DNA from: a bacterium
GTDB taxonomy: Bacteria > Oederibacteriota > Muellerivitia > Muellerivitales > Muellerivitaceae
DNA length: 64,000 bases
Direction of reading: 5' to 3'
Assembly: GCA_035549195.1 (NCBI GenBank)
Contig: DASZRK010000055.1
Span: 7,231 to 71,230, forward strand
Made by a program: the position numbers and the translations under genes. Shown one piece after another: positions 10,635 through 29,519 of the stretch (position 1 is its first letter; each line of letters opens with the position of its first letter). The notes beneath the pieces are model-generated. The model had not been told where the DNA came from. It saw only the letters and a program-made list of their open reading frames with translations, and searched no databases.

Positions 10635-10681
10635 TCGCGAACAGGTTAAAAAAGCGGGGTCAACGCGCGGTCAAGCGGGCG

Positions 10682-11101
10682 TTAAATCGAGGTTAATAGA
10701 TCTTCCGGTTCGGGACGGGCGGGCGCGGGCTTCGAGGGGAAATGGGCCAGCATCTCGCGCAGTTTCTTTTCCGCGCGCTCGGCGGCGCAGGGCTTGGAAA
10801 GCACCACGTCCACCTTCCAGCGGAAGATATCCTCCAAGGTCCGGGTGGAGCGGATCCTGGTCAAGGCCAGGACCGGGATCCGGTAGCCACCGGGGAGCTC
10901 CCGGAGCGAACGGAGGAAGCCGCTTTCCGGAAGGCCCGGAGTGGTGGGGTCGAGGACCAGGGCGTGCGGGAGGAAGATGCGGTAAAGGTCCAGGGCCTTT
11001 TCGCCCCGGCTGCAATTCAACAGTTGGAAAGAGTTCGAAAGGCCCTTGTCCAGGGTCCGGAGTTGTTCGACGTCCGAATCGATCAACATGATCTTTTTCA
11101 T
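10682..11101 (-). CDS. Stand-alone response regulator receiver protein
   Basis: Motifs IMLIDSD, LVLDP (phospho-acceptor Asp), PVLALT, LSKP. Confidence 0.8.
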   Translation of the reverse strand: MKKIMLIDSDVEQLRTLDKGLSNSFQLLNCSRGEKALDLYRIFLPHALVLDPTTPGLPESGFLRSLRELPGGYRIPVLALTRIRSTRTLEDIFRWKVDVVLSKPCAAERAEKKLREMLAHFPSKPAPARPEPEDLLTSI

Positions 11102-11232: not shown

Positions 11233-11250
11233 TTTACAAGTTTTTAACAT
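11233..11250 (+). promoter_or_regulatory. Pho-box-like direct repeat upstream of phoB
   Basis: TTTACAA (11233) and TTAACAT (11244) are 11 bp apart. A second 11-bp pair, GTAAAT/GTAAAA, lies at 11163/11174. Confidence 0.55.
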
Positions 11251-11306: not shown

Positions 11307-11990
11307 ATGAAGCAGATTTTCGTAGTCGAGGACGAGAAGGACCTTGTGGAGCTTTTGACCTATAACCTGGAAAAGGACGGCTACCGGGTCCTTTCGGAGA
11401 TGGACGGGGAAGCCGCGCTGAAGAAGATCCCGGAGAAGATGCCCGACCTGGTCCTGCTGGACCTCATGCTCCCCAAGGTGGACGGGTTGACCGTCTGCAA
11501 GACCCTCAAATCCAACCCCAAGACCAACCACATTCCCGTGGTGATGCTGACCGCCAAGGGCGAGGAATCGGACAAGATCGTGGGCCTGGAGCTGGGCGCG
11601 GACGATTACGTGACCAAGCCCTTCTCGGTCAAGGAACTCCTGGCCCGGGTGCGGGCGGTGCTCAGGCGCTTCAGCAAGGCGGGCGAGGGGGAAGTGCTCC
11701 AGAAGTTCAAGGACCTGACCCTGAACCGGGCCAAGCACGAGGTGGTGCTCAAGACCCAGAAACTGGGCCTGACCGCCAAGGAATTCGAGCTTTTGGATTA
11801 TTTCCTCACCCACCCCGGGCGGGTCCTGTCGCGGGATGTGCTTTTGAACAATGTTTGGGGTTATGATTATTTCGGCACCACCCGCACGGTCGATGTGCAT
11901 GTGCGCCGCCTCCGGGAGAAGCTGGGGGGCTACCAAAAGCACATCCAGACCGTGAAGGGATATGGTTATCTCTTCAAGGAAGAAACCTGA
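11307..11990 (+). CDS. phoB: PhoB/PhoP OmpR-family response regulator
   Basis: Motifs VVEDE, LLDLMLP, LTAKGEE.DKIVGLELGADDYVTKPFS, RTVDVHVRRLREKL, TVKGYGY. Located next to phoR and near pst. Confidence 0.9.
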   Translation: MKQIFVVEDEKDLVELLTYNLEKDGYRVLSEMDGEAALKKIPEKMPDLVLLDLMLPKVDGLTVCKTLKSNPKTNHIPVVMLTAKGEESDKIVGLELGADDYVTKPFSVKELLARVRAVLRRFSKAGEGEVLQKFKDLTLNRAKHEVVLKTQKLGLTAKEFELLDYFLTHPGRVLSRDVLLNNVWGYDYFGTTRTVDVHVRRLREKLGGYQKHIQTVKGYGYLFKEET

Positions 11991-12018: not shown

Positions 12019-13323
12019 ATGCCCGAAGGCCGTCCTCCGTCATCGCCCCTGGTCTGGGTCCTCCCCGCCGGGGTGGGACTATTCCTTTCCTTCCATTATT
12101 TAGGGTGGGCCGGGCTGGCCTGCCTCGCGGGAGGCGCCGGCATCGCGGCGGCTTTCGCCGGGTGGAAGGGCTCCCCGTCCCCCGGGGTCCCGGAACCGAC
12201 GGCCGCAAGCGTCCCCAAGGGACCGGAAGGCCTGCGGGATGTCTACATCCCGGGCAGGAATTTCGAGGAGATGCTGGAACGCCTGGGGTCCAACGAGTCC
12301 ATGCTCAACGTCATCCTCAACAGCATGGGAGAGGGCGTCCTCCTCTTGAACCAGGCGGACCGGGTGGTCCTGATGAACCCCACGGCGGAGAGGATCTTGG
12401 GAGGGTCGGAAAAATCGCACCTGGGGAAGCATTACCTGGAGTTGGTCCGGCACCCGGCCCTGGCCGACCTCCTGGCCCGTTCCAAGCAGGAAGGCCTTTC
12501 GGTCGGCGAGATGGAGTTCAGCGGGACCGAGGAGCGGACCTTCACGGTCAGCGTGGCCTCGGTGCGCACGGACCGGGAACAGGTCCTAGGGCACATCCTG
12601 GTCTTCTCCGACATCACTTCCTTCAAGCGCCTCATGCGCATGCGCACCGAGTTCGTGGCCAACGTTTCCCACGAACTGAAGACGCCCCTGACGGCCATCC
12701 TGGGCTACGTCGAGACGTTGATCTCGGGCGCGCTGGACGACAAGAAGAACCGGGTCCAATTCCTCCAGAAGATCTCGGACCAGGCCCAGCGGTTGAACGC
12801 CCTCATCACCGACGTCCTGGAGCTTTCCCGCATCGAAAGCGGAATGTTCATCACTTCCCTCGAAGCGGTGGACGTCGCCGAGACCGCCCAGCAGGCGGTG
12901 GACCTGCTGAAGGCGAAATGGGAGGCCAAGGGCATCGGGATCGATCTCAAGGTCCCGCCGCGCACCCTGGTGGAGGCCCATCGGGAAGGCCTCTTCCACG
13001 TCTTCGAGAACCTGTTGGACAACGCCATCAAGTATTCGCCGGAGAAGAGCCGGATCGTCATCGGCGCCGAGGAAAGGCCGCAGAGCAAGGTCGCCCTTTT
13101 CGTCCAGGACCAGGGGCCCGGTATCCCCAAAGAGGCCCAGGCCCGGGTCTTCGAGCGCTTCTTCCGGGTGGATGTTTCCCGCAGCCGGGAGGCGGGCGGG
13201 ACCGGCCTGGGGCTTTCCATCGTGAAGCACCTGGTCGAAAAAATGGAAGGGGAAGTGGTCCTGCAGAGCGAGGAAGGGAAGGGCAGCACTTTTACGATCC
13301 TTTTAGCCATTCCCCTGGACTGA
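12019..13323 (+). CDS. phoR: PhoR sensor histidine kinase (TM-PAS-HisKA-HATPase)
   Basis: Motifs ILNSMGEGV (PAS), FVANVSHELKTPLT, NLLDNAIKYS, DQGPGIP, FERFFRVD.SRSRE.GGTGLGLSIVKH. Confidence 0.92.
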   Translation: MPEGRPPSSPLVWVLPAGVGLFLSFHYLGWAGLACLAGGAGIAAAFAGWKGSPSPGVPEPTAASVPKGPEGLRDVYIPGRNFEEMLERLGSNESMLNVILNSMGEGVLLLNQADRVVLMNPTAERILGGSEKSHLGKHYLELVRHPALADLLARSKQEGLSVGEMEFSGTEERTFTVSVASVRTDREQVLGHILVFSDITSFKRLMRMRTEFVANVSHELKTPLTAILGYVETLISGALDDKKNRVQFLQKISDQAQRLNALITDVLELSRIESGMFITSLEAVDVAETAQQAVDLLKAKWEAKGIGIDLKVPPRTLVEAHREGLFHVFENLLDNAIKYSPEKSRIVIGAEERPQSKVALFVQDQGPGIPKEAQARVFERFFRVDVSRSREAGGTGLGLSIVKHLVEKMEGEVVLQSEEGKGSTFTILLAIPLD

Positions 13324-13471: not shown

Positions 13472-13990
13472 ATGCCGGCATTGAACAGTCTTGAGGTCGC
13501 CCGTGAACTGATCGGTTCCTCGGGGTTGGAGGAGAGCCTGTCCCTTTTCAAGACGGCGGGCCATGGCGGGACCGCGCCTCCGGAGGAACTCTTGAAATGG
13601 GTCCTGGCCATGAGCGCCTGCAACCTCAGCCGGACCCTGAAGCTGGAGCATATCCAGGCCCAGGTCCAGGAGGAGGATCGCCAGGACATCCTGGACGATT
13701 ACATCGTGGAATCCCTCCGCCGCCAGGACCTGCAGGTCTTCCGGGATGGGGCGGAGTTGATGGAAAAGTGCCAGGATATCCTGAAGGCCGCCGAAGAACT
13801 GGAGTCCTTTTGGTACGGGACCCCTCAGGATCCCGGCAACCCGGGGCCCCGCTATTTTTGCGTGAAGGCGGTCCTTGAACACCTTGGGGCCGAGGACCAG
13901 TTGGACCTCCGTGACGCCCTTTTCGAATTCATGTACGTCCAGCACAGCCATTTCCTGGCCCATTTCCGCAGGCCCCGCCCGCAGGCCTAA
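13472..13990 (+). CDS. Hypothetical protein, paralog of the downstream gene
   Basis: Host-like codon usage; shares ACNL..TLK, EDRQDI.DDYIVE.LR, PGPRY.CVK and LFEF.Y.QH.HF with 14086-14682. Confidence 0.8.
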   Translation: MPALNSLEVARELIGSSGLEESLSLFKTAGHGGTAPPEELLKWVLAMSACNLSRTLKLEHIQAQVQEEDRQDILDDYIVESLRRQDLQVFRDGAELMEKCQDILKAAEELESFWYGTPQDPGNPGPRYFCVKAVLEHLGAEDQLDLRDALFEFMYVQHSHFLAHFRRPRPQA

Positions 13991-14085
13991 GGACCTTGGG
14001 TAAGTTGTTGGGGCCGGGGCCTGGTCTTGGGTAGAATCCAGTGACTGTGTGGCGTGAGAAAAATATTCCTTGCCCAAGAGGTTAC

Positions 14086-14682
14086 ATGTTTTCCTTGTTC
14101 GAGGGCGCCAGCCTCAAGATCGCCAAGAACCTGATCAAGGTCACCGGGGTCCAACAGACCCTGGCCGTGATCCAGGCCAAGAACCTGGCCGCGGTCGGCG
14201 CGCCGGAGCTCCTGGAGCAGATCCTGGCCCTCAACGCCTGCAACCTCTTCCAGACCCTGAAGGAGGACTTCGTCGAACGGCAGATCGACGCGGAGGACCG
14301 CCAGGACATCGTGGACGATTACATCGTGGAGAACCTGCGGCTCCAGACCGTGATCCCCTACCGGGACGGCGGGCACCTGATGGACCTCTGCCTGAAGGTC
14401 CAGGACCTGTCGGAGAAATACAAGGTCCATTGGATGGAGGAACAGGAGGAGTCGGGCGGGCCGGGCCCCCGCTATTATTGCGTGAAGGACCTCCTGCGCC
14501 GGTTGGGGAACGAGAAGAACTACGAACTGCATGACACGCTGTTCGAGTTCGTTTACCTTCAGCACAAGCATTTCATCCACTACTTCAAGACCCTTTTGGA
14601 ACCCATCGATGCCATGGAACCGAGGACCCCGGAGGGACCCGCCGGGGAAGCGGCCCCCGGCGAGCCCGGCGGGACGGCCTAG
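14086..14682 (+). CDS. Hypothetical protein, paralog of the upstream gene
   Basis: GAGG SD before ATG 14086; same conserved blocks as the upstream gene. Confidence 0.82.
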   Translation: MFSLFEGASLKIAKNLIKVTGVQQTLAVIQAKNLAAVGAPELLEQILALNACNLFQTLKEDFVERQIDAEDRQDIVDDYIVENLRLQTVIPYRDGGHLMDLCLKVQDLSEKYKVHWMEEQEESGGPGPRYYCVKDLLRRLGNEKNYELHDTLFEFVYLQHKHFIHYFKTLLEPIDAMEPRTPEGPAGEAAPGEPGGTA

Positions 14683-15296: not shown

Positions 15297-16070
15297 TCAG
15301 TTCGTGGTTTCCTTGGGGGCCGCGGACTTTTCGGGCGGCGCCGCCGGTTCCTTGGGAGGGACGGCGGGGGCGGCGGGACGGTCGGAAAGGAGGATCTTCT
15401 CCACCCGCGCCCGGATCTCCTTGGCGATCGAAAGGGGGGATCGGGAGGCGGCGACGCTGAAGAAACCGTACTCCCGCTGCAGGGCCAGGAAGACCTTGTG
15501 GAGCTTGTTCTGGTACTTGATGAAATTATCGTACATGCTCCCGACCCGCTGGATGTCCATGCCCGATTCCCAGTAGTCCAAATAGCCCCGTTTCTGGAAA
15601 TTCCGCTCGGCCAGGGTCTTGGGGCTGGTGTTGAGGTAAAAGACGGCGTCGGGCTCCAGGGCGAAACCGTAGATCTCCCGGAGCCAGTCCATGGAAGATC
15701 CCCGGACGATGTCCCGGGCCATGAGGGTGTAGATATAGCGGTCGGCCAGCACCACGAACCCCGCCTTGAGGGCAGGCAGGATGACCCGTTCCAGCTGGTC
15801 GGCGAAATCAGTGGCGTAGAAAAGGTTGAGGGTCAGGGCGTTCAGGGTGTTGCCGTGCATGGCCTCCGCCAGGGCCTCGCCGACCAGTTCGGACCTTTTG
15901 AGCCCCACCACCACGGTGGGATAACCCCGCCGCTCGAGCCAGTTCTGGAGGAAGCTGATCTGGGTGGAACGTCCCGCCCCGTCGGACCCCTCGATGACGA
16001 TAAGGTTCCCCTTGAGCTGGGTCGGGTCGACGTTCGGGAGGCCCTTGCCGTAAAAACGCTTGGTCTTCAT
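15297..16070 (-). CDS. Thymidylate-kinase-like P-loop protein B (Walker A Lys replaced by Arg)
   Basis: Motifs [29 protein letters not shown]. Start overlaps the upstream paralog's stop (ATGA). Confidence 0.85.
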
Positions 16071-16756
16071 TCCGCGCCTCCCCGCTTGAGCTTGAATTTC
16101 TTGAGGTCGATCAGTTTCTTGACGACGTCCCGCATCCGGGCCTGCTGGAGTTCGGAGGGATCGGTGGCGTTGATGCGTTCGGCGTTGAATTCCTTGAAGA
16201 TGCGGCCGTATTCCTCGTAGATCCTGCCCTGGAAGATCCGGAAGGATTCATAGGGGTCCTTGGAGAATCCCATGTCCAGGCCGGCCTCATGGTATTTCAA
16301 GGCGGGGCGTCCCTCCAGGATCCGGCCCAGGGCGACCTCCAGGGGAAGCTCAAAGAAGAAGGTGATGTCGGGCTTCCGGGCGAAGCGGTAGAGCTTGCGC
16401 AACCAGTCGCGGTCGCAGCCCCGGACCGAATCGCGGGCGAAGGCGGTATAGACGTAGCGGTCCGCCAGGACCAGGTAGCCCCCCTTCAGGAGGGGAAGGA
16501 TCTGCCGCTCGTAACGGTCGGCGAAGTCGGTGGCGTGGATGAGGGAAAAGGTGGTGGGGGTTAGCAGTTTCTTCTTCTTGCCCTTGCGGGTCGCCTTTCG
16601 GACGAGTTCGGAGGAGTTCCATTCGGTGAAGAAGACCTTGTAGCCTTCCAGCTCCAGCCAGCGCTTCAGGAGCCGTATCTGGGTCGACTTTCCGGACCCG
16701 TCCAGGCCTTCCACGGCGATCAGTTTGCCTTCGACCTCTTGGTTGGACTTGGGCAT
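16067..16756 (-). CDS. Thymidylate-kinase-like P-loop protein A
   Basis: Motifs AVEGLDGSGKSTQ, VLADRYVYT, PDITFFF. AGGAG SD before ATG 16756. Confidence 0.87.
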   Translation of the reverse strand: MPKSNQEVEGKLIAVEGLDGSGKSTQIRLLKRWLELEGYKVFFTEWNSSELVRKATRKGKKKKLLTPTTFSLIHATDFADRYERQILPLLKGGYLVLADRYVYTAFARDSVRGCDRDWLRKLYRFARKPDITFFFELPLEVALGRILEGRPALKYHEAGLDMGFSKDPYESFRIFQGRIYEEYGRIFKEFNAERINATDPSELQQARMRDVVKKLIDLKKFKLKRGGAE

Positions 16757-16771
16757 TCTCAAGACTCCTTT

Positions 16772-16951
16772 GGAACAGGGATGGACGCCGATGGACGGCG
16801 ATGGGAAGAAAGGCGATTCGAGAACCGCCGGATCCGTACCTTGGGCTGCCCGAAGTTCATCAAGTCGCTGACCTTGTAGGCGCAACCGATCACCTGCTTG
16901 GTCAAATCACTAGGTCCTTTATCCTTATTCATCCGGGTTTATCCCTGTTCC
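16772..16951. repeat. Periodic imperfect inverted-repeat element
   Basis: Left arm GGAACAGGGAT-GGACGCCGAT-GGACGGCGAT; right arm ATCCTTATTC-ATCCGGGTTT-ATCCCTGTTCC. The outer 11 bp are perfectly complementary and the period is about 10 nt. Confidence 0.7.
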
Positions 16952-16954
16952 TTG

Positions 16955-18466
16955 TCAGCTTTTGACGGCGAATTTGACCTTGAAGGTCTTCTCGAACATG
17001 TCGCACTTCTTCATCAGGGCCCAGCGTTCCAGAAGGAGGTCGCCCTTGCCGACCATCCGGATCGCGAATTGCGGGCGGGTGGAAAGGATACGGAACTCCT
17101 GGACCCGGCCCGAGTGGTCATGGTCCATGGCGTCCGCCACGCGGAGCAGGGAAGCGAGCTTCCAGACCAGGACCTTTTGACGGGGGTCCAGGGGGCGGAA
17201 GTTCTCGTGGGTGGCTTTGGGCAATGCCTTACGGTGATAACGGGCGATATTGGCGATCAATTCGACCTGCTCGACCTTCAGACCGATCAGGGGGGTGGCC
17301 TTGATCAGATAGTAGGAATGCTTGTGATGGGCCGCGTAATTCACGAACTGGCCGATATCGTGGAGGCGGGCGGCGGCCTCCAGCACCAGTTTGAATTCGT
17401 CCCCCAGGCGGTGCATTTTCTTCGTCTTGTCGAAAAGGTCCAAGGCCAGGCGCGAGACGGTCTCGGCATGGGCCTGATCGTAGGCGTAACGGAGGCCGGT
17501 CCTTTGGATGGACTCCATGACCTCGTCACGGTGGAGGGGAGGCTTCCCGGTCAGCAGCTCGGAGACCATGTCGATCAGGAGCCCTTCCTTCACGCCCACA
17601 TTGGGGATGTAGATCCGGGGACTATGGCTCACGTCCATGATCTGGCGGAGGGCCGTGGTGGCGGGGATGATGACATCCGCGCGGTCCGGCCGGAGGCCCA
17701 GCCGCGTTATCCTTTCGTCGTAGGGGATCTTCCGCAAGCGCGTCAGAAGGGCGTCCAATTCGGCCCGGGTGACGAAACCGGATCCTTCCTTATGGAGGAG
17801 CCTGGATTTGAGGTCGAGCAGGGCATCCAGGTTGCCCCCGGTGCCCACGCAGAGCTCGATCTTTTGGCCGGACAATTTGGCGTTGAAACGGCGCCGGGCG
17901 GCCTCCACGTATTCCTGGACCATGTGGTTGAATTTCTTCTCGCCGTATTTTTCCTTTTCCAGGACCTGCAGGAGACGGACGGCCCCCATCTGGAAGCTCT
18001 CGGCGGCCAGGATCTTGCCGTTGCGGGCCAGGGTGATCTCGACGCTGCCGCCGCCGATGTCCACCAGCATGGCGGTGCGCCCCTCCAGGGGGATCTTCTT
18101 GGAGACGGCCAGGTAGACCAGCAGGGCCTCTTCCTCGCCTGTGATGGTCTTGAGCTCGATCCCGGTGGCCTGGAAGACCTTCTTGATGAAGACGTCCCGG
18201 TTCTTCGATTCGCGAAGGGCGCTGGTGGCCACGGCCCGGGTCTTGAGGACGCGATTCTGGTCGATCACCTCGCGGAAGTGGCGGAAGGCTTCCAGGGCCC
18301 GTTGGGTGGTTTCCTTCGTTATATAACCCTTGGTGAAGACATCCTGACCGAGGCGGACCGGCTCCCGAAGGTCCTCGACCACGTGGAGCTGGCGGTTATG
18401 GTCCATGAATCCAATGGCCAGCCGCATGGCGTTGGAACCGACATCGATGGAGCAAAGGGTGGGCAT
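16955..18466 (-). CDS. ppx: Exopolyphosphatase / pppGpp phosphohydrolase (Ppx/GppA) with C-terminal HD domain
   Basis: Motifs IDVGSNAMR, VATSALRE, GEEEA, DIGGGSVE, GTGG, R.DVII, GVKEG, LHDIG, HHKHSYYLI, RYHRK. Confidence 0.93.
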   Translation of the reverse strand: MPTLCSIDVGSNAMRLAIGFMDHNRQLHVVEDLREPVRLGQDVFTKGYITKETTQRALEAFRHFREVIDQNRVLKTRAVATSALRESKNRDVFIKKVFQATGIELKTITGEEEALLVYLAVSKKIPLEGRTAMLVDIGGGSVEITLARNGKILAAESFQMGAVRLLQVLEKEKYGEKKFNHMVQEYVEAARRRFNAKLSGQKIELCVGTGGNLDALLDLKSRLLHKEGSGFVTRAELDALLTRLRKIPYDERITRLGLRPDRADVIIPATTALRQIMDVSHSPRIYIPNVGVKEGLLIDMVSELLTGKPPLHRDEVMESIQRTGLRYAYDQAHAETVSRLALDLFDKTKKMHRLGDEFKLVLEAAARLHDIGQFVNYAAHHKHSYYLIKATPLIGLKVEQVELIANIARYHRKALPKATHENFRPLDPRQKVLVWKLASLLRVADAMDHDHSGRVQEFRILSTRPQFAIRMVGKGDLLLERWALMKKCDMFEKTFKVKFAVKS

Positions 18467-18660
18467 CAGGGGCCTTCTCGAGGGTTGGGACTGAAAAGGC
18501 CGTATTTTATCAGGAAAAAAAGGGCGGGCATGGAGATCAATGTTAAATCTTCAGGATTTTAGGGCCTTTTTGTCCTTCCTTTGTTTTCGGGGCTTTAATG
18601 GCCGCTTTACCGTTCGGAAACATAGGGGCCCTAGCCTTCTCCCAACGAAAAGGGGGAACT

Positions 18661-19200
18661 TTGGCCTCGGGGATCCTGCAAAAAGTCACGGCTTGGGATG
18701 GGCGGCTCTTTGAGCGCGTCTTCGACAACGCCCATCGCCGCTTCTGGAAAGCGTTCTTCCGGGTCCTTTCCCACAGCGCCGAAAGTTATTCCTTCCTGAT
18801 CCTCGGGTTCCTGGGCGTTCTTTTGCGGCCGGAAACACTGCCATGGGTCATGGCGGGAATGATCGGGTTCGCGTTGGAGCTTTCCGCCTATTACCTCCTC
18901 AAAAAGAACATCAAACGGCCAAGGCCCTTCGTTCAAAGACCGAACGTTCATTTCCATATCGTCCCGCCCGATGAATTCTCTTTTCCTTCCGGCCATACGG
19001 GCGCGGCCTTCCTGATGGCGGTCCTTATTTCGGGCGCATTCCCGTTCCTGATGGTCCCGGCGGTCCTTTGGGCCTGCCTGGTGGGTTTTTCAAGGGTGTT
19101 CCTGGGCGTCCATTATCCGACCGATGTGGTGGCCGGGATGGTCCTGGGGGTCAGCAGCGCCTTCGCCGGGATCCATTGGGTGCATTCGCTTCTTTCGTAG
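18661..19200 (+). CDS. PAP2 family membrane phosphatase
   Basis: Motifs K..IKRPRP, SFPSGH, SRVFLGVHYPTD. Start placed at TTG 18661 (GGGGGA SD); alternative is ATG 18598. Confidence 0.88.
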   Translation: MASGILQKVTAWDGRLFERVFDNAHRRFWKAFFRVLSHSAESYSFLILGFLGVLLRPETLPWVMAGMIGFALELSAYYLLKKNIKRPRPFVQRPNVHFHIVPPDEFSFPSGHTGAAFLMAVLISGAFPFLMVPAVLWACLVGFSRVFLGVHYPTDVVAGMVLGVSSAFAGIHWVHSLLS

Positions 19201-19232: not shown

Positions 19233-19250
19233 TTAACCCGGATTTAACCT
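19233..19250 (+). promoter_or_regulatory. Pho-box-like direct repeat upstream of the porin gene
   Basis: TTAACCC (19233) and TTAACCT (19244) are 11 bp apart. Confidence 0.5.
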
Positions 19251-19480: not shown

Positions 19481-20728
19481 ATGAAACGCTTTTGGTTGCT
19501 GGCGCTTTTGATGGCCGGAATGCTGGCGTTGCCCCTGGGCTCGTCCGCTTCCGCCCAAGATGAAGGTACGTCCATGGACGATATCAATTCGGCGTTGGGC
19601 AGCATGTCCGCCCACATGAACGACATTGATAAGCAGTTGAAACTGAAGTTCTTCGGGGATGTTCGTCTTCGTTACGCCTTCATCGCCCAAAGCTCGAGCA
19701 CGGCTGGGACCACGATCGCCGACCAGAGCCTGGGTCGGTATCGCGCCCGCTTCGGGGCCGCGATGACTTCCGGGGATTTCACTGGGAAGATCCGGATCGC
19801 CACTGGCTCGAACAATTCCCCTTGGTCGCAGAACAATACTTTTGACACTGGTATGGTCACCCCGTTCTTGACGATCGATACCGCTCAGATCGATTGGAAG
19901 CCGAGTTTCGCGAACGGCATGTTGCTTGTCACCGCCGGCAAAATGGGGAACCCTTTGACGAAGTCGGTCATCACCTGGGACCCGGATATCCAACCGGAAG
20001 GCGCCTTGATCCAATTCCAGAAGAGCGACTTCACCCTCCGGGCGACCTATTTTGAACTGGTGAACCAAGCTCCGGTCACCATCAATGGGGTTGCCCAAAA
20101 ATGGGACTTCTTCATGGACAACGTTCAGGCCGAATATGACATCAAGATGGACAAGGATTCCTTGGGCATCATGGTCGGCTACGAGTACATTCCCAATACC
20201 ACCCTTCTTGCCGCCAATGGATTGGGTTTTGGGTCCACGACCGTTTTCACCTCTGGCGTCACTGACCCGGGTGGTGTTTACCGCGATTTCAACGTGGTGG
20301 AAGGGATGTTGACCTTCAAGTCCAAGCTGGGGGATGTCCCCATGAAGTGGACCTTGCACATGACGGACAATCTGAACGGCATGAACCTCCCCATCGCCGG
20401 CAATGTCTATAGCTCGACCTTCACCAACCAGTATGCCTGGTTGTTGGGCGTGGACTTTGGCCAGAACAAAGAGGTGGGCGAGTTCGCCGCTGGCGTTTTC
20501 GCCGCCCAGGTGGATCCGAATGCCCAGTTGCCTACCCTGGTGGATGACGACTCCGGCCGGACCAATACCCAATATCTGTCGGGATATTGCTCCACCTTGT
20601 TGGATCCGGGTGTGACCTTGAAGCTGACCCAGTGGGTCAATGGCAAGGAGTATTACGCTTTGATCAGCACTGCGAGCAAGCACAATCCGGAATTCCGCAC
20701 TTACCTGGATTGCATCGTCAACCTTTAA
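19481..20728 (+). CDS. Putative outer-membrane porin directly upstream of pstS
   Basis: Signal peptide; motifs LKFFGDVRLRY, RYRARFG, IDTAQIDW, GKMGNP, WDPDIQPEG; alternating beta-strand pattern. Confidence 0.78.
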   Translation: MKRFWLLALLMAGMLALPLGSSASAQDEGTSMDDINSALGSMSAHMNDIDKQLKLKFFGDVRLRYAFIAQSSSTAGTTIADQSLGRYRARFGAAMTSGDFTGKIRIATGSNNSPWSQNNTFDTGMVTPFLTIDTAQIDWKPSFANGMLLVTAGKMGNPLTKSVITWDPDIQPEGALIQFQKSDFTLRATYFELVNQAPVTINGVAQKWDFFMDNVQAEYDIKMDKDSLGIMVGYEYIPNTTLLAANGLGFGSTTVFTSGVTDPGGVYRDFNVVEGMLTFKSKLGDVPMKWTLHMTDNLNGMNLPIAGNVYSSTFTNQYAWLLGVDFGQNKEVGEFAAGVFAAQVDPNAQLPTLVDDDSGRTNTQYLSGYCSTLLDPGVTLKLTQWVNGKEYYALISTASKHNPEFRTYLDCIVNL

Positions 20729-20816: not shown

Positions 20817-20834
20817 TTAACATCCCTGTAACAT
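20817..20834 (+). promoter_or_regulatory. Pho-box-like direct repeat upstream of pstS
   Basis: TTAACAT-ccct-GTAACAT; the same two heptamers occur at 25392-25409. Confidence 0.7.
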
Positions 20835-20879: not shown

Positions 20880-21887
20880 ATGAAAAATCTGCAAACCATC
20901 CTGAAAGGAGCCCTGGCGGCGGCCGTCATGACGGCTACCAGCTTGGCCAACGCCGGTTCCTTGAACGGAGCCGGGGCCACTTTCCCCTATCCCATCTACT
21001 CCAAGTGGTTCTATGAGTACAACCAGAAGACCGGGACGGCCATCAACTACCAATCCATCGGGTCCGGCGGGGGCATCCAACAGATGACCAACGGCACCGT
21101 GGACTTCGGGGCGTCCGACGCTCCCTTGACCGACGAGCAGGTCGCGAAGATCAAGGACGGTTGCATGCACTTCCCGACGGTCGCCGGCGCGGTGGCCTTG
21201 GCCTACAACGTCCCCGGCGTGTCCAGCGGGTTGAAGCTGACCCCGGCCGTCCTGGCCGATATGTACATGGGCGCCATCACCAAGTGGAACGACCCGCAGA
21301 TCGCCGAGATCAACGAAGGGGTGAACCTTCCTGACCTCAACATCACGGTCGCCCACCGGTCCGATGGAAGCGGAACGACCAACATCTTCACCAACTACCT
21401 GACCAAGGTCAGCGTGAAGTGGGCCTCCACGGTCGGCTTCGGCACCGCGGTCAAGTGGCCGGTCGGCGTGGGTGGGAAGGGCAACGAGGGCGTTGCCGGT
21501 CTCATCTCGCAGATCCCGGGCACCATTGGCTACGTCGAGTTGGCCTATGCCGTCAAGAACAAGCTCTCCTACGCCATGCTGAAGAACAAGTCGGGCAAGT
21601 ATGTGGAGCCCACCTTGGCGTCCACCACCGCCGCGGTGGCCGGGGCGAAGATGCCCCCCGATTTCCGCGTGATGATCACCAACGCCTCGGGCGCGGATGC
21701 CTACCCCATCTGCGGTTTCACCTGGCTGCTCATCCACAAGAGCTATGGTGAGAAGGCCGCGGACATCAAGGGATTCTTGAACTGGTACCTGACCACGGGT
21801 GAGGGAATGGCCTCGGAGCTTTACTATGCGCCGCTGCCTTCCGCCATCATCGACAGGGTGAAGAAGAAAGTCGATCTGATCCAGTAA
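20880..21887 (+). CDS. pstS: Phosphate ABC transporter substrate-binding protein
   Basis: Motifs GAGATFPYP, YQSIGSGGG, DFGASD, HRSDGSGTT, GKGNEGV, IGYVE, YPI. Confidence 0.96.
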   Translation: MKNLQTILKGALAAAVMTATSLANAGSLNGAGATFPYPIYSKWFYEYNQKTGTAINYQSIGSGGGIQQMTNGTVDFGASDAPLTDEQVAKIKDGCMHFPTVAGAVALAYNVPGVSSGLKLTPAVLADMYMGAITKWNDPQIAEINEGVNLPDLNITVAHRSDGSGTTNIFTNYLTKVSVKWASTVGFGTAVKWPVGVGGKGNEGVAGLISQIPGTIGYVELAYAVKNKLSYAMLKNKSGKYVEPTLASTTAAVAGAKMPPDFRVMITNASGADAYPICGFTWLLIHKSYGEKAADIKGFLNWYLTTGEGMASELYYAPLPSAIIDRVKKKVDLIQ

Positions 21888-21905: not shown

Positions 21906-22880
21906 TTGAACGGTTCGAACGAGTTGACAGGCAACGAGGAGGTCCGGAACCGGACCTCCTCGTTGTTCTTTTTAAAGTCCGGTTTCGCGGACAAGGCCTT
22001 TGAGGGTATCACGGCCTTTTTCGCCTTTTTGATCCTTTTCCTCGCCGTTCTGACGGCCTTCACGTTGTGGAAAGCCTCCGCGCCGACCATCGAAAAGATG
22101 GGCTGGCAATTCCTCACTTCCTCCGATTGGGACCCGGTCCAAGGGGTCTTCGGTTCCTTGCCTTTCGTCTATGGCACCCTGCTTTCCTCCTTCCTCGCCT
22201 TGCTGATCGCAACGCCTTTCGGAATCGGCATCTCCCTTTTCCTCACCGAGCTTTCGCCCATGAAATGGCGGGACCCGGTCGCTTTCCTGATCGAGATATT
22301 GGCCGCCATCCCCAGCGTGGTCTATGGGCTTTGGGGCATGTTCCTTCTGGCGCCCTTCATGCGGGTCCATGTGGACCCGATCCTGATGAAGACCGGGCTT
22401 CCGTTCTTCAAGGGGCCGTCCACGGGCCTGTCCCTCCTGACCGCCGGCATCATCCTTTCCATCATGATCCTCCCGACCATCACGGCCATCAGCCGGGAGG
22501 TGTTCGAGGCCGTCCCGAACCCCTATCGTGAATCGGCCAGGGCCCTGGGAGCCACCCGGTGGGAGACCATCCTGCTGGCCGTGGTGAGCCCCGCGCGGGT
22601 CGGGGTCCTGGGCGCCATCATGCTGGCCCTGGGCCGGGCCCTGGGCGAGACCATGGCGGTCACCATGGTGATCGGGAACAACCCCCAGATCGTGGCCGAC
22701 CTGTTGGCCCCTTCCCACAGCATGGCCAGCGTCATCGCCAATGAATTCTCCGAGGCCACCAGCGACCTGCATATCTCCGCTTTGGCGGAGATCGGCCTGC
22801 TCCTGATGGTCATCACACTGGTCTTGAACATCGCCGCGAACCTCCTGGTTTGGGCCACGGCCGCAAAATTCCAGAAATAA
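21906..22880 (+). CDS. pstC: Phosphate ABC transporter permease
   Basis: Motifs LAAIPSVVYGLWG, RESARALGATRWE, ALGETMAV, IANEF. Confidence 0.95.
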   Translation: MNGSNELTGNEEVRNRTSSLFFLKSGFADKAFEGITAFFAFLILFLAVLTAFTLWKASAPTIEKMGWQFLTSSDWDPVQGVFGSLPFVYGTLLSSFLALLIATPFGIGISLFLTELSPMKWRDPVAFLIEILAAIPSVVYGLWGMFLLAPFMRVHVDPILMKTGLPFFKGPSTGLSLLTAGIILSIMILPTITAISREVFEAVPNPYRESARALGATRWETILLAVVSPARVGVLGAIMLALGRALGETMAVTMVIGNNPQIVADLLAPSHSMASVIANEFSEATSDLHISALAEIGLLLMVITLVLNIAANLLVWATAAKFQK

Positions 22881-22890
22881 GGACCCGAAG

Positions 22891-23742
22891 ATGATCGATC
22901 ACCAGACCCGCCGCCTTTGGTTGGACCGAGCCATGGTCTTCCTTTGCGGGGCCGCGGCTTTCATCGCGATGATCCCGCTGGTGAGCCTGATCCTTTATGT
23001 GTTGGTCCAGGGGGTCCACCGCCTGGACCTCACCTTTTTCACCCATCTGCCGACGCCTGTCGGCGTTCCGGGCGGCGGCATGGGGAACGCCATCCTGGGG
23101 ACCTTGACGCTGATGCTGGTGGCTTCCTTGCTCGGTCTTCCGATCGGGATCCTGGCCGGGGTCTACCTGTCCGAATACGGGAAGAAGAACAAATTCGCCT
23201 GGCTGGTGCGTTTCACCTCGGACGTCCTCTCGGGGGTGCCTTCCATCGTGACGGGCATCGTGGCCTATTCCCTGGTGGTCCGCCCCATGCACGGGTTCTC
23301 CGCGCTGGCCGGGGGAGTGGCCCTGGGCTTCATGATGATCCCCATCGTGACCCGGACCACCGAGGAACTGGTGAAGATGGTGCCCCACTCCATCCGGGAA
23401 GCCTCCTGGGCCTTGGGCGTTCCCCAATGGCAGACCATCCTGGCCATCGTGATCCGCACCGCCAAGAACGGGATCCTGACCGGGGTCCTGCTTTCCATCG
23501 CCCGCATCGCCGGGGAAACGGCGCCCCTGCTCTTCACGTCCTTCAACAACCAGTATTGGCCCCACGGGTTGATCCAGCCCACGGCGTCGTTGACGGTCCA
23601 GGTCTTTACCTATTCCATCTCCCCCTTCAAGGACTGGCAGGACCAGGCCTGGACCGGCGCCTTGGTGCTCTTGATACTGGTATTGACCATCAATCTGTCG
23701 GCAAAACTCTTTTTCAAGAATCCCAGGAGCGCTTTAAGATAA
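22891..23742 (+). CDS. pstA: Phosphate ABC transporter permease
   Basis: Motifs [27 protein letters not shown]. Confidence 0.95.
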
Positions 23743-23756: not shown

Positions 23757-24641
23757 ATGGGACCCATGATCGACGAGGTCGCCGCAAGGCCTGAAAAGGA
23801 AAAAAAGAAAATGGACTCCAAGGAAGGCAAGGTCGAGGTCCGGAAGGTCGAAGTCGTCCGGCAGGATGCCCCTGCGGGCGAGAAAAAGCTCAAGATGAAG
23901 GCCGAGGGCGTTTGCGCTTGGTTCGGCACCAAGCAGGCCCTCTATGACGTCAACATGCCCATCTACGAGAAGGAAGTGACCGCCATCATCGGGCCCTCGG
24001 GTTGCGGCAAGTCCACCCTGATCCGCTGTTTCAACCGCATGCACGAGACGGTCCCGGGCTCGAAATTCGCCGGGGACATCTTCCTGGAACAGCAGAGCAT
24101 CTTCGATCCCCGGATGGATCCGGTCGAGGTCAGGCGCCGGGTGGGGATGGTCTTCCAAAAACCCACCCCTTTTCCGACCCTTTCGATCTTCGACAATGTG
24201 GCCGTGGGGCTTCGCTTGAACGGCGTGCGGGACCGCAAGGTCCTGGAGGAGGTCGTGGAGCGCAGTCTGCGGAAGGCCGCCCTTTGGGAGGAAGTGAAGG
24301 ATTCGCTGGGCAAGGCCGGCGGGGCCCTTTCGGGCGGGCAGCAGCAGCGCCTTTGCATCGCCCGGGCCTTGGCCATTGAACTGGAGGTCCTGCTGATGGA
24401 CGAACCCTGTTCGGCCCTGGATCCCATCTCGACCACCAAGATCGAGGAATTGATCCACGAACTGCGCCAGAACTATACGATCATCATCGTGACCCACAAC
24501 ATGCAACAGGCCGCCAGGGTCTCGAACCGGACCGCCTTCATGCTCAACGGGAAGCTGATCGAATACGACGCGACGGAAAAGATGTTCACCAATCCCGAGA
24601 ATAAACTGACGGAAGATTACATCACCGGCCGTTTCGGCTGA
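23757..24641 (+). CDS. pstB: Phosphate ABC transporter ATP-binding protein
   Basis: Motifs [53 protein letters not shown] before ATG 23757. Confidence 0.96.
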
Positions 24642-24690
24642 GGCGGGGTGTAGAATGGCGAGTGAAAGTATGGAATTGGAAGGAAAGAGA

Positions 24691-25347
24691 ATGCAGATAT
24701 CGTTCGACGAGGAATTGTCCCAGCTGAAGGAAAAGATCCTCTTCATGGGGAGCAAGGTGGAAGAGGCCATCCGCTTGGCCTTGAAATCCCTGGTGGACCG
24801 CGACTCCAAGCTGGCCCGGCAGGTCATCCAGGGCGACCGCGACATCAACGACATGGAGATCGAGGTGGACGAGATCTGCCACCGCCTTTTGGCCCTGCAC
24901 CAGCCCATGGCCGGGGATATGCGGTTCGTGACCAGCGCCATGAAGATCAACGCGGACCTGGAGCGGATCGGCGACATGGCGGTCAACATCGCCGAGCGGG
25001 CCCTGACCCTCAATGAAGTGGCGCCCTTGAAGCCCTTCATCGACATCCCCCGGATGGCCTCGATCGCGCAGGAGATGGTCAAGGTGTCCCTGGATTCCTT
25101 GGTCAATCGGGACCCGGCGGCGGCCAAGAAGGTCTGCGAACGCGACGACGAGGTGGACAACCTGAACGACCAGATCATCCGGGAACTGATCAGCTACATG
25201 CTGGAGGACCGGGCCAACATCAAGCGGTCCTTGGACCTCATCCTGGTCTCGCGCTACCTGGAACGGGTGGCCGACCACGCCACCAACATCGCCGAGGACG
25301 TCATTTACATGGTGGCCGGCAAGGATATCCGTCACCATCGCGGCTGA
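24691..25347 (+). CDS. phoU: Phosphate signalling protein PhoU
   Basis: Motifs D..IN..E..VDE, DLERIGD, DDEVD, LERVADHATNIAE. Alternative start at 24655. Confidence 0.95.
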   Translation: MQISFDEELSQLKEKILFMGSKVEEAIRLALKSLVDRDSKLARQVIQGDRDINDMEIEVDEICHRLLALHQPMAGDMRFVTSAMKINADLERIGDMAVNIAERALTLNEVAPLKPFIDIPRMASIAQEMVKVSLDSLVNRDPAAAKKVCERDDEVDNLNDQIIRELISYMLEDRANIKRSLDLILVSRYLERVADHATNIAEDVIYMVAGKDIRHHRG

Positions 25348-25391: not shown

Positions 25392-25409
25392 TTAACATTG
25401 ACGTAACAT
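25392..25409 (+). promoter_or_regulatory. Pho-box-like direct repeat upstream of DUF47-pit
   Basis: TTAACAT-tgac-GTAACAT. Confidence 0.68.
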
Positions 25410-25460
25410 GGGCCCTGGGGCAAACTTGCCCCGCTCCAACAACCTTGGAACGGGGTGCCC

Positions 25461-26087
25461 ATGTTCGACTTCCTGATCCCAAAAGAGTTCGGTTTTTTCG
25501 ATGTTTTTGACCAACACGCGGCCACCTGCGTGGAAGGAAGCCGCATCCTCTGCGAAATGCTGGACCATTACGGGGACGCTCCCGCCAAGGCCCGGCGCAT
25601 CAAGGATGTGGAACACCAGGCCGATGACATCACCCACCACACGGTCGAGATGCTCCATAAGACCTTCGTCACCCCCATCGACCGGGACCAGATCCATGAG
25701 CTGATCACCAACATGGACGACATCATGGACCTCATCGACGGGGCCGCCCGCCGGATGCTCCTTTATGATGTCCGCTCCATCCCCGCGGAACTGAAGGAAC
25801 TGGCCAAGGTCCTCCACCATTCCACCCTGGAGCTCCAGGTCGCCATCAAGAGCCTCCGGAACCTCAAGAACGCCAAGGTCATCATCAAGGCCTGCATCGA
25901 GATCAATAAATTGGAGAACGACGGGGACGCCATCCGGGACGCGGCCATTGCCAAGCTCTTCCAGGAAGAAAAGGACGCGGTCCAGGTGCTGGTCTGGAAG
26001 GAGATCTACGAGGCCGTCGAGACCGCCATCGATCGTTGCGAGGACGTGGCCAATGTGATCGAGGGCGTCGTCCTCGAGAACGCCTGA
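25461..26087 (+). CDS. DUF47 / PhoU-like Pit accessory protein
   Basis: Motifs IKDVEHQAD, TFVTPIDR, LENDGD, IDRCEDVANVIE; adjacent to pit. Confidence 0.9.
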   Translation: MFDFLIPKEFGFFDVFDQHAATCVEGSRILCEMLDHYGDAPAKARRIKDVEHQADDITHHTVEMLHKTFVTPIDRDQIHELITNMDDIMDLIDGAARRMLLYDVRSIPAELKELAKVLHHSTLELQVAIKSLRNLKNAKVIIKACIEINKLENDGDAIRDAAIAKLFQEEKDAVQVLVWKEIYEAVETAIDRCEDVANVIEGVVLENA

Positions 26088-27121: not shown

Positions 27122-29497
27122 TCACTGCAGGATGGTGATCTCGCTGGTCGAGGAACGGCCCGCGTCGTCCAGGCAGACCACCCGGTGCTTTCCGGGGGCC
27201 GGAACGTAGAAGACCTTCTGTTCCGGCGGGCCCGACCCCGCCAATTTCCCGTCCACCAGCCAGTAGACCTTCTTCACATTGGAGTAGACCGAGGCCAGGA
27301 GCAGGATCTTCTGGTCCTCCCGGGCGATGCCGGGCCTGAGGCTGAACTCGGTCTTGTCCTCGGGGGAATGGATGTGGGGCGCGGACCCGTCCTCGGGCCT
27401 CTGGCACCAGGAAGCGTGAGGGGGAAGGGTCTTGAGGGGATAGCCCGCCCGCCGGAGCCAGGTGGCGATCCAAGCGGGCCAGACCTCGAAGGGTTTCTCA
27501 TAACACTTACGCCCCTTCTCGCAGGCGCTGCAGACCAGCTCGCCCGTCAGGGCGTCGACCTTGCGCATCTGATGGAAGGTGCATTCCCGGGTCGAGGAGA
27601 CGTTCTTGAGGTAATAATCGGTGGTCCTTTCCGAACAGGCCTGTCCCGGGGGCGCCCCGCTCAGGGCGCAGACCTCCCGGATGCCGACGTCGTCGGGCCG
27701 GCGGAACCATCCACCCGGTTCCAATTGGTCCAAGGCCCTGAAAATATGGAAGAGAAGGGGGGCGGCCGCGGTGCCGCCCACCAGGTCCCGCGACCCTTCG
27801 CCCGTGAAATTCCCCGTCCAGACCCCGACGGTGAACCGGGAGTTATAACCGATGCTCCAGGCATCCTTGTAGCCATAGGAAGTCCCGGTCTTCCAGGCGA
27901 TCTTGGGGGCGTCGGCCAGGCTCTCCCAGGTGTCGGGGAAATCCGGGCGGTGGACGTCGGTCAGGATCTCGGAGACCAGGTAGCAGGCGCCGGGGGAGAG
28001 GATGGGGCCCAGATCCTCCCCCTCCAGGTCCTTCAGGAAAGAGGCCTTCTTCAGGTCGCCGCCCCGGGCGAGACAGCTGTAGAACTCGCAAAGCTCCACC
28101 AGGCTCACCTCGCAGGCACCCAACACGATCGGAAGACCATAGTAATAGGGATTCGGGTTCAGGCCCCGGACCCTGTCCCGGGCGAGCAGGGTGTAAAGGC
28201 CGTCGGGCCCCAGCCGATGGTTGAGGATGACCGCCGGGACGTTGAGCGATTGAGCGAGGGCGTTGCGGGCGCTGACCACCCCGGCGTATTTCCCGTCGAA
28301 GTTGGAGGGTTGGTATCCGTCGTAGGAAATGGGCACATCCTCCAGGAGGGTCCGGGGCGTGATCATGCCCTTGTCCATGGCCAGGGCGTAAAGCAGCGGC
28401 TTCAAGGTGGAACCGGGCGACCGAGAGGCCAGGGCCCCGTTGACCTGGCCCTGGTAGCGGTCGTCCTGGAAATCCCCGGACCCGACCATGGCCAGGACCT
28501 GGGCGGTCTTGTTGTCCATCACCACCACGGCGGCCTGGTGGATCTGGGAGGCGGCCAGGATCCGCAGGTGCCGCTCGGTCAGGCTCTGGCAGATGGACTG
28601 GATCCGCCGGTCCAAGGGCGTGCGGATGTCGGCCGCCCGGGGGGAGGAGGACTTGACCCAATCGGTGAAATGGGGGGCCTCGAAAGGGAACTCCCGTTCG
28701 GCCACGGGGTTCTCCTCCCGCAGGGCCAGTTTCAGGTCGTTCGGGGAAAGGGCCCCGAGGACGGCCAGCTTATGGAGGACCTGGTCCCGGCGGAAGCGGG
28801 CCGCCCCGTAATTGCGGTCCAAACGATAGCCGTTGGGGGATTTGGGGATGACCGTCAGTAACGCCGCCTGGGAATAGCTCACCCGGGAAGGCGGTTCATG
28901 GAAATAAGCGAGGCAGGCCGACCGCACCCCCACCAGGTTGCCGCCATAGGGGGCCAGGTTCAGGTAAAGTTCGAAGATCCGGTCTTTGGGAAGATGCCAT
29001 TCCAATTGGAGGGCCCGAAGCACCTCCAGGGCCTTGGAGGAATAGGTCCTCTCCTTGGGCTCCAGGAGCCGGGCGACCTGCATGGTGAGGGTGGAGCCGC
29101 CGCAGACCACCTTTCCCGCCCGGTGGTTGGTCCAGAATGCCCTGATAAGGGAGAAGGGGTTGATCCCCGGGTGCCAATAGAACCAGCGGTCCTCGTAATA
29201 GAGGATCGAGCGCCGCAGGGGTTCGGAAACATCCTCCAACCTGCATTTGAGCCGCCATTCGTTGCGGCTGTCGCTGAAGATCCGAAGGGGGACGCCTTGG
29301 GTGTCGGAGACGACCGTGGAATAGTCCTGGAGCGCCCGGTCGAGGGGGAGCGGGAAGAGCAGGTCCAGCAGCTTGAACGACAGGAGGAAGGCCAGGAAAA
29401 ACCGGGCCTTCCGGGAAGCGGCCAGGGTCTCCAGGGCGGGCCGGGCCACCGCCCAGGCCCGCCGGGACCTCTGCTTCCATTCGCGCCGCAAGGCCAA
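27122..29497 (-). CDS. pbpC: Penicillin-binding protein 1C
   Basis: Transglycosylase motifs EDRWFY.HPGINP and GGSTLTMQVAR; transpeptidase motifs SPGSTLKP, SLN, KTGTS; C-terminal BiPBP domain; adjacent to A2M. Confidence 0.93.
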   Translation of the reverse strand: MALRREWKQRSRRAWAVARPALETLAASRKARFFLAFLLSFKLLDLLFPLPLDRALQDYSTVVSDTQGVPLRIFSDSRNEWRLKCRLEDVSEPLRRSILYYEDRWFYWHPGINPFSLIRAFWTNHRAGKVVCGGSTLTMQVARLLEPKERTYSSKALEVLRALQLEWHLPKDRIFELYLNLAPYGGNLVGVRSACLAYFHEPPSRVSYSQAALLTVIPKSPNGYRLDRNYGAARFRRDQVLHKLAVLGALSPNDLKLALREENPVAEREFPFEAPHFTDWVKSSSPRAADIRTPLDRRIQSICQSLTERHLRILAASQIHQAAVVVMDNKTAQVLAMVGSGDFQDDRYQGQVNGALASRSPGSTLKPLLYALAMDKGMITPRTLLEDVPISYDGYQPSNFDGKYAGVVSARNALAQSLNVPAVILNHRLGPDGLYTLLARDRVRGLNPNPYYYGLPIVLGACEVSLVELCEFYSCLARGGDLKKASFLKDLEGEDLGPILSPGACYLVSEILTDVHRPDFPDTWESLADAPKIAWKTGTSYGYKDAWSIGYNSRFTVGVWTGNFTGEGSRDLVGGTAAAPLLFHIFRALDQLEPGGWFRRPDDVGIREVCALSGAPPGQACSERTTDYYLKNVSSTRECTFHQMRKVDALTGELVCSACEKGRKCYEKPFEVWPAWIATWLRRAGYPLKTLPPHASWCQRPEDGSAPHIHSPEDKTEFSLRPGIAREDQKILLLASVYSNVKKVYWLVDGKLAGSGPPEQKVFYVPAPGKHRVVCLDDAGRSSTSEITILQ

Positions 29498-29519
29498 AGC
29501 GATCCTCCGCCGGGTCCGG

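Follow-up and report, generated by a model that had tools for sequence, protein, structure and literature searches.

The two tandem thymidylate-kinase (TMK)-fold genes considered here, which lie directly downstream of an exopolyphosphatase gene (ppx) in an uncultured candidate-phylum bacterium (GenBank assembly GCA_035549195.1, contig DASZRK010000055.1), very probably encode a bacterial family-3 polyphosphate kinase (PPK3) standing beside its partner exopolyphosphatase. The stretch of DNA analysed, hereafter the window, spans 64,000 nucleotides (nt; positions 7,231 to 71,230 of the contig), and its minus strand carries, in this order and all co-oriented, ppx, gene A (the predicted catalytic subunit, cPPK3) and gene B (the predicted regulatory subunit, rPPK3). 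The subunits characterised in the Sulfolobus acidocaldarius enzyme (SaPPK3) have their orthologues in A and B, with the motif pattern described below and a conserved gene order. The window pair is a bacterial member of a family already characterised in Sulfolobus, not a new kind of system; its significance lies in the occurrence of a complete ppx-cPPK3-rPPK3 module within a Pho-type phosphate island of such a bacterium.

A first-pass annotation of this DNA, made from the sequence alone, had described two paralogous TMK-fold genes with overlapping stop and start codons, downstream of and co-oriented with ppx, and this description holds: the two products are 41% identical (E=6e-49) and their genes overlap by an ATGA. 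Its reading of the P-loops as GLDGSGKST in A and GSDGAGRST in B, and of a DRY.YT..ARD motif in both, was likewise recovered. The annotation also argued that the pair is not a housekeeping dTMP kinase, in agreement with the match found here to the S. acidocaldarius PPK3, which has no dTMP kinase activity. Its remark that no characterised function was known is out of date, given that PPK3 was described in a 2024 preprint (bioRxiv 10.1101/2024.08.28.610084) and in the Journal of Biological Chemistry (JBC) in 2026 (Hofmann et al., PMC12995831).

In S. acidocaldarius, the sixA-ppx-cPPK3-rPPK3-CHAD operon encodes an ATP:polyphosphate phosphotransferase that is heteromeric and works in both directions (Hofmann et al., JBC 2026, PMC12995831; bioRxiv 10.1101/2024.08.28.610084). 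Its catalytic subunit, Saci_2019, forms polyphosphate (polyP) from ATP and ATP from ADP and polyP; Saci_2020, the regulatory subunit, is inactive alone and gives maximal stimulation of cPPK3 when the two are present 1:1, forming an alpha2beta2 complex with it. The enzyme strongly favours the ATP-forming, polyP-consuming direction, prefers ADP, has some activity with GDP and does not use GTP as a donor. Basic residues proposed to bind polyP are conserved in cPPK3 and not in rPPK3, and the inactivity of the latter was ascribed to replacement of the DRX arginine. Neither Saci_2019 nor Saci_2020 has dTMP kinase activity, which resides in a third paralogue, Saci_0893. Generally, genomes with PPK3 have a separate canonical tmk, often without PPK1 or PPK2, and the family was described as present in "a few bacteria" (all from PMC12995831).

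Protein A as the probable catalytic subunit

Both the Walker-A lysine and the DRX arginine are intact in A, which reads EGLDGSGKST (P-loop) and ADRYVYTAFARD, with the motif ADRYVYT; the wider signature ADRY(V/I)YT..ARD is common to A and B. Protein A is 55% identical to the characterised cPPK3, Saci_2019 (E=5e-75). Its best match in the PDB is S. tokodaii st1543 (2plr/5h70; E=1e-64), to which it aligns across 209 residues, against 8e-17 for the best canonical TMK; st1543 is a homologue of Saci_2019 (PMC12995831). Hidden Markov models (HMMs) trained on 26 sequences of each type, all of them bacterial, score A at 415 (c-type) and 202 bits (r-type), and in neighbour-joining (NJ) trees of 60 c and r sequences it falls among the c sequences, the c|r split recurring in 200 out of 200 bootstraps.

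The region of the fold that accommodates dTMP in canonical enzymes is altered in both proteins: the REPGG-type loop is replaced by TEWNSS in A and by VVGLKRS in B, and AYQ by ARD. A has, in addition, a basic patch (RKATRKGKKKK). Taking as c-specific those basic positions that are Lys or Arg in at least 80% of 30 c-type sequences, all of them are Lys or Arg in A: R32, K40, R53, K58, K60-62, R81, R84, R150, K154 and R173. The PPK2 domain PF03976 returned no match for either A or B at E<=0.01.

Protein B as the probable regulatory subunit

In B the Walker-A lysine is replaced by arginine (GSDGAGRST) while DRY is kept (ADRYIYT), the basic patch is lost and the C-terminal tail is rich in Pro and Ala. 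Most of the c-type Lys/Arg positions are non-basic in B, which has N43, P51, G64, E69, M71, H72, G73, Q92, D165 and I184. Pairwise identity alone is ambiguous for this protein, because B is closer to Saci_2019 (40%) than to Saci_2020 (31%). The ambiguity is settled by the HMM scores and the NJ split, which separate c from r. The r-type HMM gives B 395 bits and the c-type HMM 192, with the same preference in Saci_2020 (135 versus 88) and in the Metallosphaera sedula r subunit, Msed_r (146 versus 94); the split between all c and all r sequences, Saci_2020 included, is found in 200 of 200 bootstraps, with B grouping with Saci_2020 and the M. sedula and Nitrososphaera r subunits. B and Saci_2020 also have derived characters in common, namely ADQxE (ADRYE in c), a GL/GI strand (TEWNSS in c) and TLxA (TAxA in c). 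As for A, the best PDB match of B is st1543 (E=1e-42; best canonical TMK 9e-13), and an AlphaFold2 model of B (predicted local distance difference test score 76, predicted TM-score 0.74) has the ADP-bound chain 5h70_B as best fold match (target-normalised TM-score 0.92, root-mean-square deviation 1.9 A).

The arginine at the Walker-A lysine position extends well beyond B: it occurs in 117 of its 120 close homologues and in 29 of 30 paired r sequences, Saci_2020 keeping the lysine. Among 89 diverse r-type representative domains (clusters at 50% identity), the position is Arg in 81, Cys in seven, Val in one and Lys in none, whereas every c-type representative domain has the lysine. The DRX arginine (column 116) is kept in 28 of the 30 r sequences, that is, in Nitrososphaera and in all 27 bacterial ones, B included. 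DGY in place of DRY is confined in this set to Saci_r (ADGYVLT) and Msed_r (ADGYVST), and across the representative clusters about four of the 112 r-type domains have another residue in place of the arginine. We therefore treat loss of the DRX arginine as a Sulfolobaceae trait and not as family-defining for rPPK3, for which the alignments point to a near-universal signature in which the Walker-A lysine gives way to Arg (rarely Cys) and DRY stays intact. This Lys->Arg change is absent from the main text of both the preprint and the JBC version of the PPK3 paper. The common r subunit, with Walker-A Arg and intact DRY, differs in this way from the one that was studied, a difference that bears on mechanism.

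The seven proteins with Cys are P0384, P0392, P0414, P0420, P0442, P0493 and P0498 (e.g., EGAESAGCTT), and in P0398 a TNGY replaces DRY, as in Sulfolobaceae; because of these Cys variants and the TNGY of P0398, active-site residues of the r lineage appear altered in more than one way.

The r-type P-loop, EGxDGxGRST, is almost invariant across phyla, and DRY, the lid arginines and an LDYWESGMD motif are kept. A nearly constant P-loop with specifically Arg (rarely Cys) for Lys, along with an unbroken DRY and lid, extends over about ten bacterial phyla and Nitrososphaera. In P-loop enzymes, a Walker-A Lys->Arg change usually abolishes phosphoryl transfer and allows nucleotide binding. We speculate, tentatively and holding it rather unlikely, that rPPK3 is more than a scaffold and acts as a nucleotide-binding, catalytically inert sensor of energy charge; ATP or ADP occupancy of its site could then set whether polyP is built or consumed. 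If so, the Sulfolobaceae r subunits (DGY, with Lys at the P-loop in S. acidocaldarius) would be derived and atypical.

Comparison with SaPPK3 and other known systems

The likeness to SaPPK3 extends to architecture. In both, ppx is followed at once by tandem TMK-fold paralogues, giving the arrangement ppx-c-r that is common to the window, S. acidocaldarius, M. sedula and Nitrososphaera, and in both a catalytic subunit (predicted, in the window) with Walker A, DRY and a putative basic cleft is paired with an r subunit that has no such cleft. The differences are also plain. The host is an FCPU426-like bacterium here and the archaeon Sulfolobus there; SixA and CHAD belong to the Sulfolobus operon and not to that of the window; the window Ppx has an extra C-terminal HD-like domain III (503 amino acids (aa) versus 411 in S. 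acidocaldarius); and the window locus, unlike that of SaPPK3, is embedded in a phoBR/pst/pit island. PPK3 has been defined on a single archaeal enzyme.

A further comparison is with predicted PPK3 operons of Nitrososphaera (sixA-ppx-c-r-CHAD; locus L086), whose r signature is that of B (GPDASGRST, ADRYIYT), with a Ppx of about 505 aa and overlapping c and r genes, as in the window; unlike the window, they are archaeal and have SixA, CHAD and PhoX neighbours. The S. tokodaii protein st1543 (STK_15430; 2plr, 4nzy, 4rzx, 5h70) has the same fold and ADP site as A and B; it entered the PDB, and was initially described, as an unusual thymidylate kinase, and represents the catalytic subunit only. Canonical Tmk (TIGR00041, PF02223) is similar to A and B in fold, P-loop, DRY and lid, and differs from them in that A and B form a ppx-linked, predicted heteromeric pair, with the dTMP motifs replaced and a basic, putatively polyP-binding cleft in A. 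A functional parallel is offered by two-domain class II PPK2 (for example, Pseudomonas aeruginosa PA3455), which also joins an active P-loop module to an inactive, oligomerising paralogous module and performs polyP-dependent nucleotide phosphorylation. It differs from PPK3 in belonging to PF03976, in having both modules fused in one chain and in phosphorylating AMP and GMP; the polyP and nucleotide sites of PPK2 are moreover swapped relative to PPK3 (PMC12995831).

Proposed mechanism and alternative explanations

By analogy with SaPPK3, A would be a TMK-fold P-loop kinase holding ATP or ADP at the usual P-loop site, with a basic cleft that would replace the dTMP pocket and bind polyP, catalysing ATP + polyP(n) <-> ADP + polyP(n+1). 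B would be its catalytically dead paralogue, with the Walker-A lysine changed to arginine and the basic cleft lost, and would be made 1:1 with A via translational coupling; it would join A, probably in an alpha2beta2 tetramer whose core is a B dimer, and would activate A in this way. Ppx would hydrolyse polyP to phosphate. Given the Pho-type island around the genes, the most likely role of the module is to lay up phosphate in the form of polyP while ATP/ADP is high; once energy or phosphate becomes scarce, the polymer may be returned as ATP (by PPK3) or as phosphate (by Ppx). Activity, stoichiometry, activation by r and the ATP-forming preference come from the SaPPK3 literature, and we carry them over to the bacterial pair with lower confidence, as regards the alpha2beta2 complex, the direction of the reaction and the role of r, than the assignment to PPK3 itself.

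Several points weigh against the assignment. The dTMP-kinase equivalog TIGR00041 scores A at 88.6 and B at 84.1 bits, only just above its cutoff of 83.25. B departs from the CHARACTERISED r subunit, with Lys->Arg and an intact DRY where Saci_2020 keeps the lysine and has DGY for DRY; because B is disabled differently, its inertness and activating role are extrapolated. The activity predicted for the window pair rests on 55% identity to an archaeal enzyme. CHAD and SixA, members of the archaeal operon, are absent from this locus, and a 198-nt spacer with a hairpin separates ppx from A, although co-transcription of ppx with A and B is likely.

The TIGR00041 scores, together with Pfam Thymidylate_kin (PF02223) matches of about 80 bits for each protein, the names given to homologues and the deposition of the S. 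tokodaii structure as a dTMP kinase, are what could be expected if A, B or both were ordinary dTMP kinases, duplicated in tandem and placed beside ppx by chance. We consider this extremely improbable, since the E-value of the PPK3 structure betters that of canonical TMKs by about 48 orders of magnitude, other residues stand in for the dTMP-site motifs, no close homologue of B has a Walker-A lysine and the c-r pairing is kept in 78 of 80 loci, in addition to the absence of dTMP kinase activity from Saci_2019 and Saci_2020 and its presence in Saci_0893 (PMC12995831). The names themselves follow from the scores: homologues are called dTMP or thymidylate kinase because A and B clear TIGR00041 by only 1-5 bits and have Pfam matches of about 80 bits. 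All source names on homologues P0001-P0240 are either 'dTMP kinase' or 'thymidylate kinase'. The whole PPK3 family is systematically misannotated as dTMP kinase, a label borne by thousands of PPK3 genes.

A second possibility concerns the substrate, with the pair being a polyP-dependent nucleotide kinase for another acceptor (GDP, nucleoside monophosphates or an alarmone-related guanine nucleotide) that works with a GppA-type phosphatase. Ppx/GppA enzymes can hydrolyse pppGpp, the window Ppx does match the GppA model (145 bits), and SaPPK3 has both a polyP-consuming preference and some activity with GDP; yet the preferred substrate of SaPPK3 is ADP, and GTP does not serve it as a donor (PMC12995831), the window Ppx matches the exopolyphosphatase model better (228 bits), and the neighbours are phosphate-uptake and Pho genes (CHAD, SixA and PhoX in relatives), with no stringent-response genes, all of which makes such an acceptor improbable. 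The first-pass annotation had proposed an active/pseudo-active kinase pair that works with Ppx in polyP or alarmone turnover: the polyP kinase part stands, by orthology to PPK3, and nothing suggests pppGpp turnover. It is less probable still that B is an active enzyme (a kinase, or a phosphatase with an Arg P-loop) and that A and B are independent, even if the conservation of EGxDGxGRST, DRY, the lid arginine and LDYWESGMD goes beyond the needs of a pure scaffold. The usual block of phosphoryl transfer by a Walker-A Lys->Arg change stands against it, and an obligate complex is favoured by the strict adjacency of c and r, by the ATGA coupling and by naturally occurring fusions of the two; Saci_2020, the orthologue of B, shows no activity by itself (PMC12995831). 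We thus retain the reading of the locus as PPK3.

Distribution and gene linkage among relatives

When one genome per species was scanned with two r-specific peptide patterns, at least 591 stretches were confirmed as relatives. Among the matches listed, the closest named genomes are metagenome-assembled genomes of candidate division FCPU426, at 77-92% identity, and the window probably belongs to this phylum too. Neighbourhoods were counted in the best 80 of these at least 591 loci, which are mostly from Verrucomicrobiota and otherwise include Acidobacteriota, Planctomycetota, Anaerolineae, Bdellovibrionota, Bacteroidota/Ignavibacteria, Latescibacterota, Lindowbacteria and Geobacteraceae; Chloroflexota are also among the hosts in the r-type survey. 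A search for representatives yielded 193 clusters at E<=1e-30. The PPK3 family is patchy but far from restricted to "a few bacteria": r-type genes are present in hundreds of bacterial species-level genomes from about ten phyla. These figures bear on ecology, as a means of predicting soil and freshwater bacteria able to make polyP without PPK1 or PPK2.

In 78 of the 80 loci the next gene upstream of r is of c type, the remaining two being cut by a contig end. The ppx gene comes directly before the pair in 19 and, in a more divergent form, downstream of it in 16, and some ppx is within 10 kb in 35; nearby genes in other loci comprise phoBR (12), SixA (8) and pst/phoU (6). At least one polyP or phosphate gene was found in at least 41 of the 80, an undercount because only window proteins served as probes, so that the linkage to polyP genes for which the first-pass annotation had proposed a neighbourhood survey is indeed seen. 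One relative has a full ppx-c-r-CHAD-SixA operon with PhoX nearby.

Many Verrucomicrobiota have, instead of ppx-c-r, a c-r pair and, at a distance of about 1 kb downstream, a divergent Ppx-like gene (L025, L027, L032, L034, L039-L041, L044, L070-L072 and L081-L083), whose product in these Verrucomicrobiota is 24-29% identical to the window Ppx. Fusions of c and r were also observed: P0360, P0428 and P0445 (454-471 aa), along with the single-chain PPK3 versions P0385, P0395, P0417 and P0481 (621-696 aa) from the representative search. In the longer single-chain proteins a c-type domain is joined by a degenerate r-like domain as well as further sequence, and P0480 (1610 aa) has an internal c-type domain. 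P0062 (444 aa) was not counted as a fusion; its linker and C-terminus read like an out-of-frame translation.

Gene layout of the locus

Coordinates are given in Table 1. The ppx product matches PF02541 (3.3e-48), PF21447 (1.6e-28) and HD (8.8e-07); on the NCBIfam exopolyphosphatase model TIGR03706 its score remains under the cutoff of 307 bits. The open frame of A extends back to a TTG at 16885, but a start at 16756 is predicted by gene calls on identical contigs and agrees with the lengths of homologues (about 229-240 aa) and with an AAGGAG ribosome-binding site preceding the ATG. The independent gene calls were made on metagenome contigs identical to the window, from runs SRR12170510, SRR12170511 and SRR12170516. 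A GGAGG ribosome-binding site for B sits within the 3' end of A. A conserved RNA element in the ppx-A spacer was considered and dropped, the spacer length being 9-147 nt in relatives.

Between 14.5 and 21 kb, a scan for sigma-70 promoters found none, and terminator-like sites were not enriched (six versus 9.4 expected); Rfam and tRNA scans of the window returned no matches. Searching all window frames of at least 100 codons with A and B (phmmer) gave no third TMK paralogue, so that the 64-kb window holds no separate canonical tmk, and no PPK1, PPK2, CHAD or SixA was found among the Pfam-annotated frames of the window, 37 of which were scanned directly and most others annotated from identical contigs.

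Table 1. Coordinates of the ppx-A-B genes, the phosphate island and the Pho-box-like repeats (window positions)
Feature	Position	Strand	Details and basis
phoB-like response regulator	11307-11990	+	gene calls and Pfam on identical contig L001
phoR-like PAS histidine kinase	12019-13323	+	gene calls and Pfam on identical contig L001
TMK-like B, predicted rPPK3	15297..16070	-	257 aa; PF02223 3e-22
ATGA overlap, A stop / B start	16067..16070	-	sequence read directly; putative translational coupling
TMK-like A, predicted cPPK3	16067..16756	-	229 aa; PF02223 2.7e-23
ppx-A spacer, 198 nt	16757..16954	-	weak terminator-like hairpin 16829-16812; AAGGAG ribosome-binding site
ppx, Ppx/GppA-family exopolyphosphatase with C-terminal, HD-like domain III	16955..18466	-	503 aa; Pfam
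PAP2 phosphatase	18598-19200	+	Pfam and gene calls
porin	19481-20728	+	Pfam and gene calls
pstS	20880-21887	+	Pfam and gene calls
pstC	21906-22880	+	Pfam and gene calls
pstA	22891-23742	+	Pfam and gene calls
pstB	23757-24641	+	Pfam and gene calls
phoU	24655-25347	+	position beside pstB and tblastn matches in related pst clusters
PhoU_div/DUF47	25455-26087	+	Pfam and gene calls
PHO4/Pit transporter	ends 27121	+	Pfam and gene calls
Pho-box-like repeat, exact	11233-11249	+	upstream of phoB
Pho-box-like repeat, exact	19233-19249	+	upstream of porin
Pho-box-like repeat, exact	20817-20833	+	upstream of pstS
Pho-box-like repeat, exact	25392-25408	+	upstream of DUF47-pit
Pho-box-like repeat, one mismatch	10680-10696	-	
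Pho-box-like repeat TTTACC-N5-GAAACA, one mismatch	18606..18622	+	divergent ppx/PAP2 promoter region
Pho-box-like repeat, one mismatch	43213-43240	+	
Pho-box-like repeat, one mismatch	60217-60233	-	

Phosphate island and Pho-box-like repeats

The phosphate island noted in the first-pass annotation is present, comprising phoBR, PAP2, a porin, pstSCAB, phoU, DUF47 and PHO4/Pit; pstSCAB, phoU, pit and phoBR all lie within 10 kb of A and B. The window holds four exact copies of the direct repeat TTWACM-N5-KTAACM versus 0.01 expected, every one of them intergenic, and nine copies with at most one mismatch versus 0.52 expected. It resembles the TT(A/T/C)ACA-N5 repeats bound by Bacillus PhoP. The copy upstream of phoB is kept in relatives L005, L006, L008 and L009, and the copy in the ppx/PAP2 region has equal position and orientation in the FCPU426-like L006 and L007. 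Directly 5' of ppx, the window has no full repeat, only the half-site TTTAACATTGA upstream of ppx and the one-mismatch copy on the PAP2 side; one-mismatch repeats are found directly upstream of ppx in L005, L011 and L012. Taken together, the repeats suggest that the ppx-cPPK3-rPPK3 module belongs to the Pho regulon and may be controlled by PhoB. Two overlapping Pho-box-like copies lie at the start of a CorA-like gene.

Downstream of B is msrB. Between phoR and msrB there are two tandem paralogous frames on the plus strand (13472-13990 and 14041-14682; 172 and 213 aa, 43% identical, E=8e-51), both called by gene callers on identical contigs and with no Pfam or NCBIfam match. In L006, a copy 45% identical to them adjoins rPPK3, and they possibly belong to the Pho island.

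Other genes in the window

On the minus strand, a 1,900-aa bacterial alpha-2-macroglobulin (A2M; 29520-35225) is encoded directly upstream of a class-A penicillin-binding protein with a PBP1C-type C-terminal domain (27122-29536), in overlapping frames. We take this pair (27122-35225) to be the known A2M-PbpC pairing, unrelated to PPK3. In a 609-aa protein (44895-46724, plus strand), the C-terminal half contains an Mrr_cat restriction-endonuclease domain and the N-terminal 350 aa are unassigned; its gene adjoins that of a MazG-like pyrophosphohydrolase (44213-44923, minus strand).

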